Shown: piece after piece, positions 36,764 through 49,184 of the stretch
How the letters are laid out: each line of letters opens with the position of its first letter
Position numbering within the stretch: position 1 is the stretch's first letter
Source: Vicugna vicugna
Lineage: Eukaryota
Assembly: GCA_013265495.1 (NCBI GenBank)
Contig: MU058009.1
Location: 1,738,001 to 1,798,000 of the forward strand
Direction: 5' to 3'
Length of the DNA stretch: 60,000 nucleotides
The notes under the pieces: model-generated
What the model was told of the DNA's origin: nothing
What the model saw: the letters and a program-made list of their open reading frames with translations, nothing else
Database searches by the model: none
Made by a program: the position numbers and the translations under genes

Positions 36764-38777
36764 AAATGTGTGTGCATTTTTAAATGAACACCCCTTAATA
36801 TCATTGGTTCTCTGACACTTGCAATCCACTTTGCTCTTATAGACACTGCCTAGAAAACGTGAGTGAGAAGGAGGTATACATCTGGGGAGGACCAAATAAG
36901 ATAAAGGAGTAATCTTACAGGAGGAAAAATCTAAGGGCTTGAGAAATCAAAGTAGATGTCACTTGTATTGTTTAAGTGTAAATAATTATTTGCATTGCAA
37001 CTGTTTGAAACTATATATTCAGCTTAAAGAAGGCCCTGGTTTCCATGACTCCTCCTGGCCTGACAGGGCCATGTGCCTTCACATTTATGGTGGTTTCTAG
37101 TGATCCTTGACATTTCCTAGTAACGTGGGGAGGTTTCTGGAAAAGCAGTGGAGGGCAGATGGGTAGCTGTCTATTAAAACAATTCATCAGACAGCAGTTG
37201 AAATATTGATAAGAAAACGGAAATCAAATTAAAAGACGGGAAAAGAGAGAGGAAGAGGGATTGGGACTGACGGAGCTGGAGGGAGGCAGCGGAGAGGGAA
37301 GCTGCAGGAGGCACAGACTTGAGTGCCTCCCAAAGCCCTAAGTTGTGCAGGGGCTGAGGCTGCGTGTCTGGATACGCTGGAAAGAAAGGCAAACTTTGAC
37401 TCTGGGCAGCCAGCAGGTTCAACTCCGCTCTGTCAAGGATCGGGAATCTGGGCACAGAGGATCTGCACCAAGAGCTTGAACATCGTGGAGTTGCCAGAGT
37501 CCATCTCCTGCTGGTGGCGCAGAAAGGGGTGTCTGAGGTGGGTGTTCACGTTCCTGTGGGGTCTCTGGGACGATGCAGGGTCGCTTCTCTCAGTCTGGCT
37601 GCCTGCTCTAGTTTGCAGCCGGGAAAAGCAAGGCTTTCTGGGGCTCTTTCTCTCGTTCTCTCCTGGGCTTTCTCTCCTGCCCTTTTGATTTTTCCTCCTG
37701 CTCACTCTTCTTGCAAATTTCACTCCAAGTCTCAAAAAAAAAAAAAAGGGGGTGGCTGGGGAGGGGGGAGACTCTGGAGCAAGGGCGCCAGGGGAGAACA
37801 GTGATCGAGAATCTAGGAGACTGGAGAAACGGAGAAACATACCTGGTCCCTGAACTCGTGTGTCTGTTGTGGCTCCAGGAGCCAAAAAGCTGGAATTTGT
37901 TAGTGGAGAGAAAAGTGTTTTATCAGAAACACATTGGCTGCCGTAGAAGCTGCGCCCTGCCACGTTAGAGATGGTCTAAGGGAAGAAGTAAAGGAAGAGG
38001 AGAGAGACAGCCGCCAGACTTGGCGAGGTGGGAGAGATGCACGCAGGAGGCACCTGGCATCCTAGGGCAGTTTCTGTGCCTTCCAGCCTAGATAGTCAAA
38101 CCTCAGACCTCGCCTCCCTGCCATTAAAAATGAGGCTGCCTCATTCATTGTCTTTGTCTCTTCGGGGGGAAAACCTGTTTTCTTCCAGAAGTGGGTGGGG
38201 GTGCTCTGGAAAAGGGGCCTGTGTAGACCTCCTGAAACTTGAGCCAGGCGTCCTTTCAAAGCGATCCGCCAGCAGGGAAGAGGGAGGCAGCTGGACGCTG
38301 GTGGAGTCCTAGTGGTGGTGAGGAACTTAGGCAGAGGATCTGTGCCCAGAGGGCCCCAGCATAGGCAACTCCGTAAATATCTGTTCCTTGGGCCCTTGGG
38401 CTGCGTGGGTGAGGAGACCTACCTCTATCCTGGCTACGTCTGGCCAGGATGGCCCTGGTGTCCCCAGGTATGAAACTACCCAGGCCCTGGGGGAGACGCG
38501 TGTCTCCGATTACCTGTAGGTTACAGGATTGTAGGAAAGAGATCCAACGGCGTGAGCTGGCTCCCCCCACTATCCTTTAGGCTGAACCCTGGGGGAGAGA
38601 AGTGCAGGAAGGGCAGGGTCCAGGTGGATGGGCGCCTCTCAACTCGCCTTCCTCTCCCTTTGCACTTCCGCCTCACCACCCGACACAGCCTCATCCTTCC
38701 TCCACTCGTGAGTGACTGAGGTTTCTCCCACCCAGGTTGGTTCCTGGGCCTTCCTGACCTTTTCTCGCCAACCCAGG

Positions 38778-38816
38778 ATGTCTCAGACAGTCCCTGACAC
38801 GTCGTCTTACGTCAAG
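38778..38816 (+). CDS. FLI1: Putative alternative upstream first coding exon of FLI1 (MSQTVPDTSSYVK), ERG-like
   Basis: ATG with A at -3, in-frame TGA upstream at 38709, 13 codons ending AAG|GTAAGA (phase 0, like MDGTIK). Similar to the ERG N-terminus MIQTVPDPAAHIK. Confidence 0.8.
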
Positions 38817-40927
38817 GTAAGACAAGACAGCGTCTTTAAACAGGTAATGACCCTCAGCCTCTCCCACCCCCTCCCCGACCTAGGGTCCCTTCCACCTTAC
38901 CCCGGGGAAAGAGGTCGGAGAGCGGGCCGCGCTCTCAGCAGGTGGGTCTGGAGCCAGGGGCACTGGCTGGACAAACTGAGGGGGGCGCAGACCCTTGGGA
39001 ATCCCTGGTTGAGGACCAAGGCTCTTGGCCCCTTCGGTTTGGGAGAATGGACGTGGACGAGCCTGGTGAAGGCTGACTGGGGAAGCCGAGACGCCAGCTC
39101 CAGGACCCCTGCAGGCCAGCGTCCAGTCCCAGCCGGCTGCGCGTCCACGCCGCGGGCGCACGGCGGGTTCCCCGAGTCAGGGGTCCGCGTGCACCGGAGC
39201 GTGCGCGTGTGTGCGTCTGGGTGCGGGTGAGTGATCGCGACGTGCTTCTCCGACGAGTTCGACACACCCCAGTCCTCAGGCCCACCTTTCTTGGCCCCAT
39301 TAGCCCCTCGAAAGCGAAGAGTCCTATATTTGACAGCATATCAAAGGGGACAGGTTTTTTTTCCCCCTTTTCCATAGCAGTTCCTAAGAATGTAAACAAA
39401 CCAAGGCCAGGACATCTGGGTTACACGTTTAATGAACTCCCCCAGCGGGGCGGGGCCGAGGGTGCGTACCCCCCCAGGGTGGGGACCGCAGCGAGGTCCT
39501 CTCGCAGCCCAGGCGCGACCTCCCGCTTTCAGGGTAGCAGCCCAGAGCCTTCCGCTGCGCGGAGGAGGAAGGACCACCACCGCTCAGCAAACATACTTCC
39601 AACTCCTTCCCGAAACTCCGCCCCCGGGAGGCCCCCACCCCTTCCGCCTACCCCCCACTAGCCTTCCTGAGTCCGCTAAGCCCGGCAGCGTGGCCGTCCG
39701 AGGACACCGAGCAACTCAGTGGGGTGGGAACGCTCGGGTCCTATGGGGCGCGCCAATTAAGTGTCCAACCCTCCTCCTGTTTCTCTCGAGGGAAATTTGT
39801 TGATCCCAGGTAGCATCTTCTGCCCCACGCTGGAGGTCTGAAGGAGTCTATAGTCACTTTGGGGAAGCGGGGTTCTCCAGGCTTGGCAAGGAAGAGGTGT
39901 TTAATCAATCAGTGATGAAAGTATGAAAAAGGAGTGAATCAATGGATGGGTAATCAGTGAACGCTTGGGTGGACGGCTGGCTCCCAGGAGGTGGCAGAGT
40001 ATACACAGCCTACAGCGCGCTTTGATTCGCGGTGTCCAGCTTTCCCCAGAGGCTAAGGATGCCGTAAACCCCCTCACCCCACTGCTCCCAGAACGCAGGC
40101 ACAGCTGACTGATTTCTTATTATCAGCTCTTCCCCGAGGGCTGCGAAGGGCCCCGGGGTGAGGAGTGGCCGTCTCTCTCCCATCCACAAGGATCCCCCGA
40201 GTCTGCCCCCCACCCCCCGGGATCCACAGCCTCAGAGATGACAAACCCAGAGGGGCCAAAGGGAGCCCAGGAGCCTGACCCTGACCAAGAGCCAGAGAGA
40301 AAGCAAACGGGCCGGGCAAGGGGAGGGGACTGGTGGGGGAAAAGGAGGGGCAGCAGTCTAAGAGCTGTAGCCGCCAGGGGAGCCTCTCACCGCAGGAGCT
40401 CTTTTGAAGGGGAAAAAATGGATTTTTTCAGCAGCCACAAAGTTTGTATTGTTGCACAAAGGGGTGCATTGATGACGGCGAAACGTCCGCGTGGCAGGGA
40501 CAATCTGGGTCTGTTCCGCCGGCTCCCTACGCCTACCATTTGCCAGAGGGGCACAAGCAGTCCGCGGCTGCCAAGCCTCTGCCGTTCCGCCTCTGGCACT
40601 CGACTCGGAGCTTGTTGACAAACACTGCGGGCCCAGGCGCCCAGCCCTGGGGAACCAAGGGTGCTCACTCCCACCGGGCAGCGATCTGGGTTCTAAGTGC
40701 TCGAAGAGGAACGAGCAGGAGAGCGCGTAGGGCGGGTACGAGGCTGTAAAGAGCAAGGGAAAGGTGAAAAGGGAGAGAGCATTGTATTTGTACTAACTCA
40801 TTTAATATTAATAACAACCGTAAGAGGTAGTTTTGCAGATGAGAAACTGAGTCATTAAGAGTGTAATGCAACACAGCTTACAAGTTACAAATAATAAGGG
40901 CAAAGCTGTGCTGATTGCAGGCAAGTT

Positions 40928-41075
40928 CTAAATCCTCACTTCATCTTCACAACAGCCCTTTGAGGTAGTTCCTATTATAACACCAATGTACAGATGAGGA
41001 CTCCGAGGCACAGAGAGGTTAAGGAACTCGTTCAAGGCCACAGAGCTGATAAGTGCAGAGCTAGATACAAACCCA
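40928..41075 (-). mobile_element. MIR
   Basis: cttcacaacagccc...cagatgaggactccgaggcacagagaggttaagg. Confidence 0.8.
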
Positions 41076-42109
41076 AGGGGCTGGGTTTCCCAGTGGAAAC
41101 GTTCGACCAGGAGATTCCACTTGCAGATATGGGGAGGGGCAGGAGACCCAGTGGAGTAATCCTGACCACGTCCGTGCCAGATGTCAGCACTGGGCAATGC
41201 ACTTGCCAGTCCTAGCACCAGGAGCACATCCCTGAAGGTCCCTGGCCGTCCCACTCGAGATTGGCAGGATCCTCCACTTTCCCTCTTTGTGAGTCTTCCA
41301 GATTCCTTGTTCTCGCTCCCCCACCAGCCAGCCCGCTGGTTCAACCCATGCTGCATTCTGGGGGAGACAACCCCCACTAGAGGAAAGGAGGCTGGTCGCC
41401 CTAGAATGTTCACAGCGACGTGGCCCGGGGACAGCATCTGGCTGGCAGGTTCTGAACCAGCGTTTCAAGGACACAGGTCTGTACCTTGAACGCTGTTTGG
41501 GACGTCTGGGAGGCAGGGCGGCTGGAGATTTGGAGACGCTGAATTCTCCCTTCCCCCCAAAGCCCCCATCTAGGCGCCGCCACCGGGTGAGGGTCCCGGC
41601 ACCTGGCTGGTCTCCACCTCTTGTCAGCCTGCGCTCTCTGGTCAGCCTCGGACTCCCTTGGGATTTCCTCCTCGACGCCGAGTGGTCTGGGGACCTGGCC
41701 GGGAGCGCCACGGGCTGGGGGGGGGGGGGCAGAGACCCTCCCCCTCCCGGGCCCTTCCGCCGCAGCGGCCTCCCAAGTAGCGTTTTGAACCCTCTTGGCG
41801 CTAAAGCAAGAACGAGCGTGGGGAGCGGGCAGGGTGAGCTGAGGCTCTAAATCTTCCTTCAATCTGTGAGTAGATGAAGTCTGAGAAACAAATTCAAAGC
41901 AGGCGCGCCTGCAGAGCCTTCCTGCAGAAATATTCCCCGGCATTCAAGCGCATCCAGGGGCTGCTCGAGCTGCCTTGTTTGGCTAAGGTCAGACGAGACT
42001 CGAGTTCTCCAATAAAAATAAATCTCAAATTAATTATGGCCTCGAGCGAGGGGCCAGACACTTGAAGCTGCAGTTGTGCAGTCTGGAGTTTTGGCGCTCG
42101 CTCGCCCAT

Positions 42110-42166
42110 CCCTCCCCCGCCCCCCCCCCCCCCCCCCCCCCCCCCACGCCCCCCTCCCCCACCCCC
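42110..42166 (+). repeat. Poly-C tract (C26 at 42120-42145) with flanking C-runs
   Basis: Seen directly. Confidence 0.9.
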
Positions 42167-45100
42167 TTGCCAGCTCGAGTCCTGCCTGGGCTGCTGGACA
42201 GGAGGGGCCGGGAGGGGGGAGGACGCAGGAGGAAGGATCCGCCCCAGACGCTCTGCCAAGCCTGGCATCTTTCGGGGTTTCAAGTGACCGGCCGTCCCGG
42301 GGTCCGGAGGCACCCCAGGGACCTGGCTCCGGCTGTCGCGTCCTCCCACCCCCCAAGAGCGAAGAAGCCCCGGAGGCTGCGTCTGGAAAGTCTTGACCGG
42401 GTCAAAAGGGCTGACATTGAGCGAGCCAAGACACGTTTCACCCCGCCGCCGCACCCCTCCCCGGGGAAGCAAGACTTCCGCATCTTTGAAAATACTGTCA
42501 AGTGCGGATAGTGCGAGGCCAGTCATCCCACCACAGTTGCAATGAAAATGCTCCAAGTCCAGAGTTTTCCCGAATACTCGCCCCCCGTGGACATGCTTTC
42601 TACAAGTGGCCTTAGACTTAAAAATGTGTAGTGGACTGTTTTGTTGCCCCCCCCCACAGTTGGTAGCTTTTGTTTTAAATGCTGGTCCTGGTCTCTTGGC
42701 TGTCAGCTTCCCCTGACTTGAAAGCCAGCAGGCGCTGGTAGAGTGGGCAGGATGGTCGCGGGCACCAGCTCCTGGGCACCAGTCCTGCCCAGTCTGGGAA
42801 AAGGAGAGGCAAGACAGCCTCTGGTGAGCCAGGAAAGAGGGTGTGAGCAAGTGTGTGGGCTGGGGTAACCAGCCCCTAGCTAGGCCAGGAGAAGGGAGGG
42901 GAGGAGGAGGGGGGAGGAAAAAGAGGGAAGGAGAGAGGGCAGAAGAGGGGTGAGGACAGAGAAGGGGAAGGGTTCCCCGTCCCCAGCTCCAAGCCGATTT
43001 TCATCCCTAGCAGCCTCAGGCCTCACCACAGGCTATCAGTTTGTCTCAATGCAAACATTCGAAATATTCTCTTTGGCTGCTCGTGAAAACAATGTGACCT
43101 GCCAGGATCAAACCATCTTTCCAGATGTCTGGTGGTAACCACATTAAACGGGGCAGACTTGTTTACTGTTGTGTTTGCTTAGGGCTTTTTCCCCCTTCGG
43201 GATTTAAAAAGGCAGCAGCAGCGAGTGGGGCATCAAATCCAGAGTTACGTAAGTGGGCAGACTTGCCCACCGCCATGTCAGCATGGGCGCAGGGGATCTC
43301 AGAGTCCCTCGGAGGACTGCCTAGAGCTGGTGTGTGTGTGGTTGGGGGTGGGGGGACCTGCGTCTTTCTGGGTGGAGGACCTGGTGAATGGACAGGAGCT
43401 CCTCATGGAAGAGCTGGTAAATACCAAAAGCCAGGGCACCAGTGCAGCCAGTGAGTCACTCAAGGGTGACAACTCTGCCACTGCCAGCCTCTTCCCACTT
43501 CCCACCATCTTCAAAATTACGAAACTACCGAAGCTTTGGTTTTACAGGCAGAAACGGAAAGTGTTATTGAGTTCCACAGCTAAAACCAGAGGGCCAGTCC
43601 TTGTTTAAATCAAGTGCCACACTGAGTTCTCCCAAGGGAAGAGGCACCTCCTGCTAAAAGAAGTTGGGGTGCTAGGGATATTGGGGTGACTTACTGATCA
43701 GAGCAGTGAAGACTGGCTGTTATTTGTCAGGCCGAACAGGAGTTGGGAAGAGGAGCCTGGCCACCGTCTGCCACAGAGGCGCCCTTCTCAAGCACTAGCG
43801 GGACTGTGTGTAGAAGGAGAGCTGCCGGCTGGTGTGGGGTGGCCATGAACGGCCTCAGTGTTCGCCCAGCACCAGGAAGGGGGCCTCCTGTGTAGACCGG
43901 AGTTCTTTCTGCCTGCAAGAGGGGGAATGTGGCTGAGGGTGCCTGGTTTCTGGTCAGGTCCGGGTGGGAAGTGGTCTCCCCGCTCTCTCCTGAAAGCCTT
44001 GTTGTTGTTTGAAGGTCGGCAGAGTCTGGGCTGAAAAGGAAACAATTTGGGGTTTGAAAGGATGTAATTCATTCTTCCTTTCCCTTTAACCTCTTTCCTC
44101 TCTGGAAAGCATGTGGAAACGCTGAAGGGAAGAGTGAGAGGGCCGGGGGCCAAGGGGAGGAAAGGGTTAAGCCTGATTTCTTTTAATTGAACTCCAGAAC
44201 TGGTGGCCCCAGGCAAAGGGGGGGGACTGACCCCGCTAGCGGTAACCAGATGTGGCGGTCCCAGGGGAGCCCCCGAGCAGACCCCTGGATTGAGAAGCAG
44301 ACAGGAGGGGGGGGCCTACCACTCCAGGTCTGGTCACGTTCAGACCCGTGTCTGTGTTCGAACCCAAAATTGGAGCTGAATTGATGAGACTAATTTCGAG
44401 AGGGGGTGGGGGGAGGGAGGGAGGGAGGCCAGCGAGCTCTCGGGCTCAACTGCTCCTGAAGAAATAAAGAATTAATGTCACCTTTTTTGCCGCTGTGGAC
44501 ACCCTTTTGAAATTTTTTTCTTTCCAATTGACTCGGATCTCCTCTGGATTTTTCTCCCTCCTTCCCCTGGTGGACTCTTAAATAAAAGTGAGAAAGTCCA
44601 AAGCGTGGTCTGGAGAGCGTGGACAAGGTAACCTGTTTCGGATGTCGGGGAGAAGGGAGTCACGCCTAGAGCGCCCCGGGGTCCCCTCGCAGCCCCGGGA
44701 CTCCCAAGGCTGCCCCAACTGGAGCAGGCGGCACTGCAGAGGGACAGGGAGGTCTCCGAGGGGCGGGGGCCGACAAGGCGGGCCGAGGGGAGGATGGTCT
44801 CACCGCGGGGTGAGGATGACGGTCCGGAGCACCGTCCCGGAGGTCTCACCCGGGAGCGGTCTGAGTCTGTTCAGGGTTGTTGCATGCAGTGTTCTGGAGA
44901 CCTGCCGGCCAGCCGGGAGGGATCGTCTCGCCGTAGTGTAAGTTTCTTGGGGCCCAAGGTGGCATTGCATTGGCGTCTCTGGCCCGGGCGCTGGGGCTTG
45001 GGCCATCGGGTCGGGGTCAGCGCGAGGGGTCTGACCCCAGAAGGCTCGGATAGGCGACCTGGGATGCCGCGGGAACCGGCCCTCGGCGGGCGCCGGGACC

Positions 45101-45780
45101 TCTCCGGTAGCCCAGGTGCCGGGTGCTGAGGCGCGCCCCCCGGATAGCGTCCGTCCGTCCGCTAACAGCGCGCTGGGAGCGGAGTCCACGCCCCCGACGG
45201 CAGGGGTCGGTCCGAAACCGCCCCGAGTCCGCGTCGCCGGGTGAGCCGCTCCGGGAGTCTGCCCGACTCTGCAGCCCAGGGCTCGAGTGGAAAAGTTCCC
45301 ATTGGATGCACTTTTTAGCGGTTAGTTTGCTTCTGTCTGCATCCGGATCTTCCTGGGCTGTAGGCTCCACGTTATCCCCAGCCCGAGTAAACTCTCCCAT
45401 CCCACCCCCCCCCAAAAAAAGTTTGCCTCCGGCTGGGAAAAGCATTAATGAATGTATCTGTGGGAAGAAACGGAAAGTGAATGAGTCAGGAGGGCCACCT
45501 TCGGCCAACGGCCCCGGCGAAAGGAAGGAGGCCGAAGGCGTTTGGTGTCGGACTTTGTGGGGAGGGGGGCGTGCAGACTGCGGGAATCAGGGCGCGGGCG
45601 CCGGGCGTGGACCCCGGCATTGTTCCCAGCTCGCTCTTATCTCCCGGGAGCAAGTATCCTGTGTGCGCAGCGCATGAATGTATCTGGGCATCTCCGCGTA
45701 TATTTATATAGTGTGTGTGATGCGAAAAGCAGGACCAGCAGAGGGGAGGAAGAGAGTGTGGGGTGGGGGGAGGGAAGACG

Positions 45781-45868
45781 AGGGAGAGCAAAGGGGAGAG
45801 AAGAGAAGAGAGAGGAGAGCGGGAGACAGAGAGAGACAGAGAGAGAGAGAGAGAGGGAGAGAGAGAGA

Positions 45869-45910
<42 letters not shown>
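45781..45910 (+). repeat. (GA)n / polypurine tract in the FLI1 promoter
   Basis: About 130 nt almost entirely purine, mostly GA dinucleotide, immediately upstream of the 5'UTR. Confidence 0.95.
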
Positions 45911-45913
<3 letters not shown>

Positions 45914-46172
45914 TCCTCCCCATTCGCAAAGTGAAGTCACTTCCCAAAATTAGCTGAAAAAAAAGTTTCATCCGGTTAACTGTCTCTTTTTCGCTCCGCT
46001 ACAACAACAAACGTGCACAGGGGAGCGAGGGCAGGGCGCTCGCGGGGGGCACGCAGGGAGGGCCCAGGGCGCCAGAGAGGCCGCGCCGGGCTAATCCGAA
46101 GGGGCTGCGAGGTCAGGCTGTAACCGGGTCAATGTGTGGAATATTGGGGGGCTCGGCTGCAGACTTGGCCAA
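45910..46172 (+). other. FLI1: FLI1 exon 1 5'UTR / proximal transcription start region (start approximate)
   Basis: Lies between the GA tract and the ATG; contains ETS cores (ACTTCC 45911, CACTTCC 45938) and the uORF starts. Confidence 0.75.
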
Positions 46173-46190
46173 ATGGACGGGACTATTAAG
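46132..46190 (+). promoter_or_regulatory. Overlapping uORFs: AUG -41 (46132, open through the donor) and GUG -37 (46136 to TAA 46187-46189)
   Basis: Read directly from the sequence; both are out of frame with and overlap the main ATG. Positions match the uORFs described for Fli-1 mRNA as I recall them. Confidence 0.85.
46173..46190 (+). CDS. FLI1: FLI1 canonical coding exon 1 (MDGTIK), phase-0 donor; the gene continues beyond the window
   Basis: ATG GAC GGG ACT ATT AAG followed by donor GTAAGC at 46191. Matches the recalled FLI1 N-terminus MDGTIK|EALSVV, inside a CpG island and downstream of the characteristic GA repeat. Confidence 0.96.
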
Positions 46191-49184
46191 GTAAGCGACG
46201 GAGCAGTGGGCGCGGCGCGGCGGGGCCCTCCGGGGCGGCGAGGCGGCGGGCAGGCTGGGCGCGGGGCGCCGGGGTCCCGGAAGACGTGGCCACTCTCCCT
46301 TCCTTCCGCGCCCCGGCTTCGCGCCGTCTCCTCCCGCGTTCGGGTGGCGAGTCTGGCAGGCGGGGGCTCCCCGCCGAGGGCGATCTCCCCCGCACCCCTT
46401 GTCCCAAAGCGGAGCCCGGCCCCCTCCCACCGCGCTGCCGGCCGGGCTGCGGCGGGGGCGGCGGCGTGAAACCCGGGGACCGGGGCGCAGATCGCAGCCA
46501 GAGGCCGGAGACCTCCGGGGCTACCACTCCCACCCGGCGAGCGGGGCACCCCGGCCCGGCCGCTGGCTTCCTCTTCCCCGAAGCCGAAGGCGGCGGGGGC
46601 GGGAGGACAGCTGCCAGCAGCCCGGGTCCCTGCCGGGTGGGCCCAGGGGCGGGTGAGCGGACTGGTTGCAGGCGGATCGGGGTACAAGTGAGTGTGTCTG
46701 GGGGTCTGTGTGAGCGGGCTCCTCCAGATGGAAGCCCTGTTTACATGTCAGCGCGGGCCGGTTTCCCTTCCTCTTGGTACTTCTGTTGCCGGGTTCTCGG
46801 CGCTCGGGAGTAGCCGGGGCCCTGGGGCTAACGGGCCGGCCTCGCCGCTTCTCCGCCGGGGTGCCGGCCGGTGCGCGCCGCTCCCCGCGCCGGGCTCCCG
46901 CACTCCGAGCCCGGGCTGCGCCGGCTCCGGGACAGGGCTCCCACCGTCCTCGCAAAGAGGGTCCTGCGTGCCTTCAGAGCCGCTTCCAAACCGAGAGGCT
47001 CTGAGCCCGCGGTCCCGGCCACTGCCCAACCAAATCCTGCCCCGCGGCCCCTACCCTCACCCGACACCGTGCGACTGGGTCCAGGCTGCAAAGTGCAGCC
47101 CGGAGGGCCGGGTGAGGGTCTGGGTTTTATGTCAGACTGCAAGACGGTTGACTGCCTGCTCCCTCTGGAAGGGGGAAGTGGGGCCAAAGGCAGAGATGAG
47201 GGACACCCCCTAATGTGACTGGCCTTAGAGGACGGAGAAGAATGAATGGGACCTGGGGTTGGCTGGAGGCTGTCCCAGGACACAGAGCCGGAGCTGATCT
47301 GGAAAACCTATTAGGCTGCCGAGGTGGGGACTGGCAGAGCGTGCCATCGCCAGAACTTGGAGGAATCAAGTCCTAGCTCAGGGCTGAGTAAGAGGAGGCT
47401 AAGATGTGAGGCTTGGAGAATTCAAGAGATTTTTATCATTTGGGTGGGGTGGTGGTTTTTATTTTCTAAGGTTTTTTTTTCTTCTTAAAGTTTGAAATAT
47501 GCTGACTTAAGTAAAAGGCACCAACAGCAGGAACTTGAAAATCTGGAGAGGAGACAACTGATTGTCAAGGGAGCCGCTGAGAGCCTGGGTTCCTCAAGTT
47601 TAAAGTGTGTGCATGAAAGGGGACTCCTATAGGGCGGGGGTCACTGATCATTTTATACCTGTTTCTCTTCAGGTTGGTATGTGCATGCAAGTGTCTCATA
47701 GCCCTGGTTTTGTAATAAGATGCTCCCCTCTAGAAAGCTCCCCCTTGTCCGGAGGCTTACCACTTACCCAGAAGGCACCCTCTGACCCGGAAGGGTGGTA
47801 AGATGGCTCCAGGGTCCCGATGTGGACACCCTAAGGAGAAGTGAAGCAATATCTCCCCAATGCTCAGACCTCTTAGCACAGGCCCCGAGGGTAGGGAGGA
47901 AGCTGTGGTCTGTGTACCCAGGATGTGCTAACCTCTCTAGATACATACACAGGGATTGGCATGGCAGGCAATGAGAACAGGCTTAGACTAGGACCCTGGC
48001 GCTCCGTGCTGGGATGGGAGTGATGGTCTTCCTTCTTGTGTGGGTGATGGGAGACTGTGAGTCCATCCAGACCCTCCCCCAGAGCACTTTTGACTCTGAT
48101 CCGGGTTACCTGGCTAGGAGACCCACCATGAGAGCAAGGCTGTTCAGGCTGTCACCTTCAGTCCCCAGCGCCGTGAAGGACTGCGTCTCTAGTGTATAGT
48201 TCGGTGTTTAGATTGTGTGAAAGCCAGTTTCCTGTTCATGTGTGACCTTCAGATCTTGGGGCTCCCAGACCCCACTCCCACAATGGTTCAAACACTGTGT
48301 TTGGAGAGAACAGTGGATGAGGAGAGGCCACTGGACTTCTGGTCTCCATGCACATTCTGTAAAAATGAAACAGCAGGGCCAAATTACCTCTACAGTCATA
48401 TCTTTCCAATCCTTTCAGTTCCTAAATATCATGCTCATATGCTCTTGCAAGAACATATACCTGCATGCCCACAAAATCCAGTTATATACTGAGAGGGGGT
48501 CTGAAGACACTATATACCATGTTGAATTTGTAGGCGCAAACCCAGAATGTGTGTTCCCAGTTTGAATGGCCTTGACAAATCATCTTTGACTAATTCTGGG
48601 ATGTGATTTTCATGCACCTGCATATTTCTTCCTTGTATACAAAGCATGTTTGTATTTCAAAATACATCGGGGTCTCAGCACTGAGGAACTATTTGGTCCA
48701 GGTTGCCAGAGAAGTCTGTGTTTCTTTGCAGAAGGCTTTTATTTTGTGCATAGTTTGCACAATTTCATGTGAGTACAAAATCTCAGCCTCATCGTCCTTG
48801 CTATAATAAGTCCTTCTGTATCACGCTGTCCACTCCTTTCCAAGAATGTCTCCTGGGAAGGCTCTGAGCATCACATTGGGAGGACCAGAATTTGCAGGAG
48901 CTGTTCCACTCTTCTTTTGCCACAGATAAGTTAACCTACAATATTAAACAACACCCTGCCCCACCCTGCTCTCCACGGCGATAGTATCAGTGTTGAAAAG
49001 CACGTGATGCTGGTTGCTGATTTAAGAATGACCTGGTTTCAAAAACTGCATCTTAGTTCTAGGCAGTCTTCAATTGAATCTACTCATTTCATCAATGGAA
49101 GTTTGATTTAATGTACGTGGTACTGTTAAAGGTGGGGAAGCAATCCGAGAAGATGCAGATGTGGTGAATGAAATATGGAAATGA

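Follow-up and report, generated by a model that had tools for sequence, protein, structure and literature searches.

A very probable alternative 5' coding exon of FLI1, of ancient origin, in the genome of Vicugna vicugna

The window analysed here, a stretch of 60,000 nucleotides of Vicugna vicugna DNA (G000:C1220:1738001-1798000 of the 2.03 Gb source assembly, which was also searched as a whole), holds the 5' end of FLI1, which has a major regulatory role in the development of blood and blood vessels and is the fusion partner in Ewing sarcoma. Next to the canonical first exon it contains an exon-like element at 38736-38816, located on the same strand and 7.4 kb further upstream, which an earlier note on this DNA had proposed to be an alternative N-terminal coding exon of the gene. 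The coding part of canonical exon 1, recognised in a six-frame motif scan, lies at 46173-46190 on the plus strand and encodes MDGTIK (ATGGACGGGACTATTAAG|GTAAGC, the bar marking the splice junction); its donor reads AAG|GTAAGC, and the main CpG island, at about 44500-47000, encloses its start. The same scan of the 60-kb window did not recover the EALSVVS exon (exon 2). In the assembly, a degenerate EALSVVS[DE]DQSL pattern yielded exactly two matches, with none for the control, placing FLI1 exon 2 at G000:C1220:1842837 on the same strand, equivalent to position 104837 of the window, 58.6 kb downstream of exon 1 and at a distance of about 66 kb from the alternative exon. The acceptor of exon 2 (...ctgccccccag|GAG) begins a codon, and the 212-nt exon has a translation that is 96-97% identical to placental FLI1.

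The alternative exon is preceded by the 3' end of a putative intron (38712-38735, plus strand), comprising a candidate branch region, a pyrimidine tract and a pyrimidine-rich acceptor, tttctcccacccAG|G, with its AG at 38734-38735. Behind it follow 42 nt of predicted untranslated sequence (38736-38777), free of stops in the reading frame that the start codon sets, and then the ATG itself at 38778-38780 on the plus strand, with an A at -3 (38775) and a T at +4. From there the frame continues for 13 codons, MSQTVPDTSSYVK, to 38816, where it ends in phase 0 at a first donor, AAG|GTAAGA (38817-38822, GT at 38817-38818). The start codon and its context, the 13 codons, the phase-0 donor and the acceptor are hence all present as the earlier note had described them, as is the upstream in-frame stop, a TGA at 38709-38711 that is located 5' of the acceptor and becomes intronic if position 38735 is used for splicing. 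A second donor, CAG|GTAATG, is found 27 nt after the first (38843|38844, GT at 38844-38845), likewise in phase 0, and delimits an optional extension of nine codons, VRQDSVFKQ, at 38817-38843 on the plus strand. Since both donors and the exon 2 acceptor are in phase 0, either donor joins exon 2 in frame, and two N-termini, of 13 or 22 residues before EALSVVS, are possible as judged from the sequence of the window.

The bare exon structure is weak evidence, because the same arrangement (an ATG with R at -3, 8-40 open codons and AG|GTRAG in phase 0) occurs three times in the window, twice on the plus and once on the minus strand; it is homology that makes the exon at 38778 significant. Indeed, when a 13-residue fish FLI1 N-terminus was compared with the window by tblastn, 38778-38816 was recovered with 12 of 13 residues identical and an E value of 2.5e-4. 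A protein search with the 46-residue read-through of the exon and its flanks moreover returned four open reading frames among six candidates, all four lying on genomic contigs of other organisms as read-throughs that carry no annotation; in that search a match of 13 residues is too short for E <= 10, and annotated isoforms surfaced only with an exon 2 query. Each of the four keeps ATG, frame and the two donors and reads MFQTVPDTSSYVK followed by VR, the latter reflecting a GTnAGn donor. In the alignment of the window with these four sequences, every coding position but residue 2 is invariant (12 of 13), compared with 8 of 14 codon positions in the 5' part of the exon and 6 of 9 after the first donor.

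Conservation begins about 24 nt before the acceptor at 38735, the intron end being preserved in all four genomic frames (VTEVSP[TI]Q), and it runs through ...KQVMT, just past the second donor, before it collapses. The conserved block, approximately 38712-38855, thereby exceeds the 13 codons on both sides, and it adjoins a CpG-rich stretch at 39001-40000. Both features would suit a different interpretation, namely that a conserved non-coding element, such as a piece of an enhancer or promoter, mimics a coding sequence and that the isoforms in the databases are artefacts copied by homology. On the other hand, the flanking conservation stops where the acceptor region and the second donor would end, and such an element must also account for the proteins and the ERG exon described below.

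We then used the translation of exon 2 as a protein query, which 174 proteins passed; the alternative N-terminus is present in 39 of the 120 that were listed, nearly all of them named FLI1, with 23 reading MFQTVPDTSSYVK-EALSVVS and 16 carrying nine more residues. Together with a second query, the first 40 residues of sloth isoform X4, the searches comprise 159 representatives of clusters formed at 90% identity, within which most mammalian isoforms are hidden. The alternative N-terminus is found in 76 of these: 52 have the short, 13-residue form, in which the final K is joined directly to EALSVVS as expected from the first donor, and 24 the long form of 22 residues with the nine-residue extension. 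The rest are canonical or canonical-like (27), other or partial (52), or start inside exon 2 (4). Among the 76, the 13-mer is MFQTVPDTSSYVK in 72, from which the window departs at a single position, and MFQTVPDTASYVK in four.

The taxa concerned include sharks, rays, bichir, sturgeon, many teleosts, coelacanth, lungfish, a caecilian, lizards, turtles and birds. Mammals are represented by Choloepus didactylus (X1, X4) and Dasypus novemcinctus (X1, X2, X5, X6, X14) and, among 34 further cluster members, by Odocoileus virginianus X6, which is a long form with VRQDSVFKQ, Rhynchonycteris naso and Myotis yumanensis X1, the N-terminus of which reads MFQKVPDTSSYVK, in addition to more armadillo and sloth isoforms. 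The assignment to FLI1 made in the earlier note is borne out by these isoforms, and its proviso that the exon might already exist in automated gene models was well placed. As a separate observation, an additional ATG in frame precedes the start by two codons in many fishes, the lungfish and the caecilian (P0069, P0083, P0120, P0114 and others), giving M-[RTKN]-MFQTVPD; the window reads CCC AGG at that position and hence lacks this start.

Near-invariance of a peptide from sharks to mammals is unexpected of a non-coding element. Additionally, one of the representatives, the Logan-assembled P0147 (48 member sequences), encodes a complete protein of 459 aa with the alternative N-terminus on a contig of 2704 bases; the contig must therefore be spliced cDNA, and at least one organism makes the transcript.

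Further support was obtained from the paralogous gene ERG. The pattern Q-T-V-P-D-x4-[VI]-K-GT has two matches in the 2.03 Gb, the exon of the window and an exon of ERG on the minus strand of contig C4677; as a reversed control pattern also gave two matches, the count alone proves little. The ERG exon reads ATG ATT CAG ACT GTC CCG GAC CCA GCA GCT CAT ATC AAG|GTAGGT, encoding MIQTVPDPAAHIK. Congruent with the earlier note, it has the same length as the exon in the window, and 7 of 13 residues are identical (M, QTVPD and K), two of the seven shared codons differing only synonymously (ACA/ACT, CCT/CCG). Such synonymous divergence is again at odds with a non-coding element, as is the paralogous exon itself, the MIQTVPDPAAHIK start of which appears in experimental literature (PMC7493922, excerpted text). 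Taken together, an enhancer or promoter piece posing as an exon is already largely refuted, and we consider it highly improbable.

On C4677 the QTVPD exon of ERG (3144091) is followed on the minus strand by the MASTIK exon (3078858) and the EALSVVSEDQ exon (3031620). The MASTIK pattern matches the genome five times, only once in ERG, about 65 kb downstream of the QTVPD exon, and the EALSVVSEDQ exon lies about 47 kb downstream of the MASTIK start. FLI1 displays the same order on one strand, with the QTVPD exon at 38778, MDGTIK at 46173 and EALSVVS at window-equivalent 104837. Moreover, the alternative N-terminus of FLI1 is present in the cartilaginous fishes Chiloscyllium, Scyliorhinus, Heterodontus, Mobula, Narcine and Leucoraja, and Callorhinchus FLI1 has a canonical-like MDCSIK. 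Because the three exons are in the same order in both paralogues, and cartilaginous fishes have first exons of both kinds, the layout with two first exons most likely predates the split of ERG and FLI1, as the earlier note had suggested.

Several points weigh against the assignment of the element in the window as a working FLI1 exon. Residue 2 is Ser in the window, as opposed to Phe in all 87 annotated alternative N-termini (76 representatives and 11 cluster members) and in all four genomic frames; the replacement could be neutral, could alter N-terminal processing or could reflect relaxed constraint in this lineage. The alignment of proteins from other species contributes to the construction of many of the gene models, which are therefore not independent proofs of expression. 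Finally, no human or mouse model with the alternative N-terminus was seen among the 40 of 1008 members read in the main mammalian cluster, 15 N-termini of which were examined, a sample that is no evidence of absence; human isoform 5, a member of the armadillo cluster, starts with MDGTIK.

The Ser at residue 2 raises the question whether the exon is a relic, that is, an orthologue of the vertebrate alternative exon that is unused or barely used here and persists through an overlapping regulatory element or incomplete decay. That representatives of most placental orders show MDGTIK or other N-termini points in the same direction, yet this absence means little where clustering at 90% identity conceals most mammalian isoforms. 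The ATG, the frame, the acceptor and both donors are furthermore intact, 12 of 13 residues are kept, and models of a deer, two bats, a sloth and an armadillo use the exon. We thus regard a relic as unlikely, although clearly less so than a non-coding mimic.

The long deer isoform is also informative for the region upstream. By tblastn, residues 10-58 of deer FLI1 X6 (P0168) align to 37409-37543 (E 3.5e-11, 59% identity) and residues 55-92 to 38730-38843 (E 1.5e-17), and its VRQDSVFKQ extension is identical to that of the window. The first block delimits the 3' part of an upstream exon on the plus strand, 37409-37537, predicted to be non-coding in this species, with a donor GAG|GTGGGT at 37537|37538 (GT at 37538-37539), and the deer protein leaves the genomic read-through just before VG[SP]WAF, the predicted acceptor position. 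As the deer model reads from this upstream exon into the predicted acceptor, the alternative exon is supported as an internal exon preceded by one or more non-coding exons, as anticipated in the earlier note. The deer model has a longer open frame that starts at an upstream ATG, whereas in the window this frame is closed by an in-frame TGA at 37397-37399, near the upstream exon. Scanning of 37372-37537 and 38736-38777 revealed no ATG, so that 38778 would be the first ATG on the predicted transcript within the exons known. Just upstream of the 37409-37537 exon, the sequence at 37200-37330 is GGAA-rich and CpG-poor with several GGAA cores, the core of ETS sites, making it a candidate upstream promoter with ETS sites.

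The sequence features and the compatible frames are established here, as are the orthology with annotated isoforms and the layout that parallels ERG; on these grounds we conclude that 38736-38816, or 38736-38843, very probably represents in this species an alternative 5' coding exon of FLI1 that is of ancient origin. Transcripts would begin at a putative promoter 5' of the canonical one, carry one or more non-coding exons up to the donor at 37537, and be spliced into the acceptor at 38735/38736, with translation starting at the ATG at 38778. They would leave the exon through either phase-0 donor, 38816|38817 or 38843|38844, skip canonical exon 1, which is a first exon, and be joined to exon 2 (EALSVVS) at G000:C1220:1842837. 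The short product, MSQTVPDTSSYVK-EALSVVS, would be 7 residues longer than MDGTIK-EALSVVS, and the long product, MSQTVPDTSSYVKVRQDSVFKQ-EALSVVS, 16 residues longer; both would differ from canonical FLI1 solely at the extreme N-terminus. The second donor, the upstream exon ending at 37537 and the Ser in place of Phe had all escaped the earlier note.

Skipping of exon 1 would also change the mRNA. An out-of-frame ATG at 46132 lies 41 nt before the canonical start, with a frame that overlaps this start, and the predicted mRNAs would lack it together with exon 1, in line with the bypass put forward in the earlier note. Read by eye, the frame of this ATG would end in exon 2 after splicing. Overlapping upstream reading frames in Fli-1 exon 1 were reportedly described by Sarrazin and colleagues in 2000, and the upstream ATG is said to modulate FLI1 translation; the ATG at 46132 agrees with such frames.

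The near-invariant peptide M-F-QTVPDTSSYVK may, tentatively, represent a functional module, for example a stability signal, a binding site or a signal for N-terminal modification, since sharks and mammals alike conserve it and ERG shares its core, M-x-QTVPD-x4-[VI]-K; we hold this as a possibility rather than an expectation. If true, isoforms of FLI1 and ERG arising from the upstream promoter would differ in their properties from the MDGTIK and MASTIK isoforms. A Met-Ser N-terminus is stripped of its Met and acetylated by NatA, while Met-Phe keeps its Met, in accordance with the rules for methionine aminopeptidase and N-terminal acetyltransferases; the change from Phe2 to Ser would then presumably alter N-terminal processing in this species.

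Other features of the locus were recorded as well. At 45796-45909, within the CpG island and about 260 nt 5' of the canonical start, GA is repeated about 58 times, and an imperfect poly-C run of 57 nt at 42110-42166 is found inside a small CpG-rich block (41501-42500). For the region 38000-47000, 24 sequencing runs were listed, and five that are on record as RNA held 0.27-0.39 of the sampled words, these being shares of unaligned words and not evidence of expression.

FLI1 N-termini of other species were also compared with the window by tblastn, the matches being inspected for eight of 17 queries (P0168, P0018, P0012, P0176, P0142, P0026, P0162 and, for a portion of its matches, P0146). The N-termini of P0168 and P0142 match the alternative exon, and those of dog (P0018, P0176), clouded leopard (P0012), P0026 and P0162 have no convincing match in the window besides MDGTIK, with a best E of 0.05 or worse. 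Elsewhere, unrelated sequences precede EALSVVS (P0018, P0012, P0176, P0088, P0170), such as MTFQVLNYKPGDSGQ in dog, MDICKIH... in clouded leopard and jaguar, MHLKKLVEHRK in frogs and another in rat. From these sequences, the first exons of FLI1 seem to include several that are specific to a lineage.

A Fli-1b isoform is said to have been described by Dhulipala and colleagues in 1998. The term 'Fli-1B' was considered as an isoform name and rejected, since in the excerpt of PMC3270256 it denotes a gel-shift band. The first exon of the human variant NM_001271010 was likewise considered as a counterpart and dropped; its exon 1 is at chr11:128564020-128564160 (PMC5558660), and no tie to the alternative exon was established. 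In the main text of the searched literature, the strings 'QTVPDTSSY', 'MFQTVPD' and 'MSQTVPD' do not occur and 'MIQTVPD' occurs in two ERG papers; main texts on FLI1 isoforms, SENCR, alternative or distal promoters, and the upstream reading frame or p48/p51 yielded nothing on the alternative exon. The exon is real and ancient, but it is already contained in public gene models of dozens of vertebrates, mammals included, and is not a discovery; the window adds one more species and a variant with Ser for Phe2. Its relevance lies in that a second system of promoter and first exon, as in ERG, can change the N-terminus and produce an mRNA that lacks the upstream ATG of exon 1, which would matter for the design of isoform-specific knock-outs, antibodies and expression assays.

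The closest known counterparts of the predicted exon are annotated isoforms of the same gene, XP_070255260.1 (Myotis yumanensis X1), XP_037697866.1 (Choloepus didactylus X1), XP_058145270.1 (Dasypus novemcinctus X14) and XP_070313484.1 (Odocoileus virginianus X6). Reading MFQTVPDTSSYVK-EALSVVS or MFQTVPDTSSYVKVR.DS.FKQ-EALSVVS, they are joined in phase 0 at both donors as predicted for the window and, compared as proteins without coordinates, are identical to its peptide at 12 of 13 residues, the difference being the Ser at residue 2.

A paralogue rather than an orthologue, the MIQTVPDPAAHIK exon of ERG has a closely similar architecture: 13 codons, a phase-0 donor after AAG, an untranslated 5' part of about 40 nt after the acceptor, a position upstream of an M-x-x-TIK first exon and a junction with the EALSVVS exon. 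In the excerpted text of PMC7493922, the ERG protein starts with MIQTVPDPAAHIK-EALS, and the exon precedes a 218-bp exon named exon 4. The two genes differ in spacing, which is larger in ERG (about 65 kb and 47 kb, versus 7.4 kb and 58.6 kb in FLI1), and in the second donor, as no CAG|GT is visible 27 nt downstream in ERG. Moreover, the 5' part of the ERG exon has an upstream ATG, whereas that of FLI1 does not; the ERG sequence there shows a short upstream reading frame, ATG CTG ACT CAG TTG GCC TCC TGA.

FLI1 is described as a gene of nine exons over 120 kb that yields two proteins, p51 and p48, and the excerpts of the two papers concerned (PMC9781631, PMC3270256) make no mention of the alternative exon in their descriptions of the gene. 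This textbook account and the alternative exon have in common that N-terminal diversity arises at the 5' end of the gene. However, p51 and p48 are derived from two start codons on one mRNA, whereas the alternative exon lies apart, further upstream, and would provide an N-terminus of a third kind.

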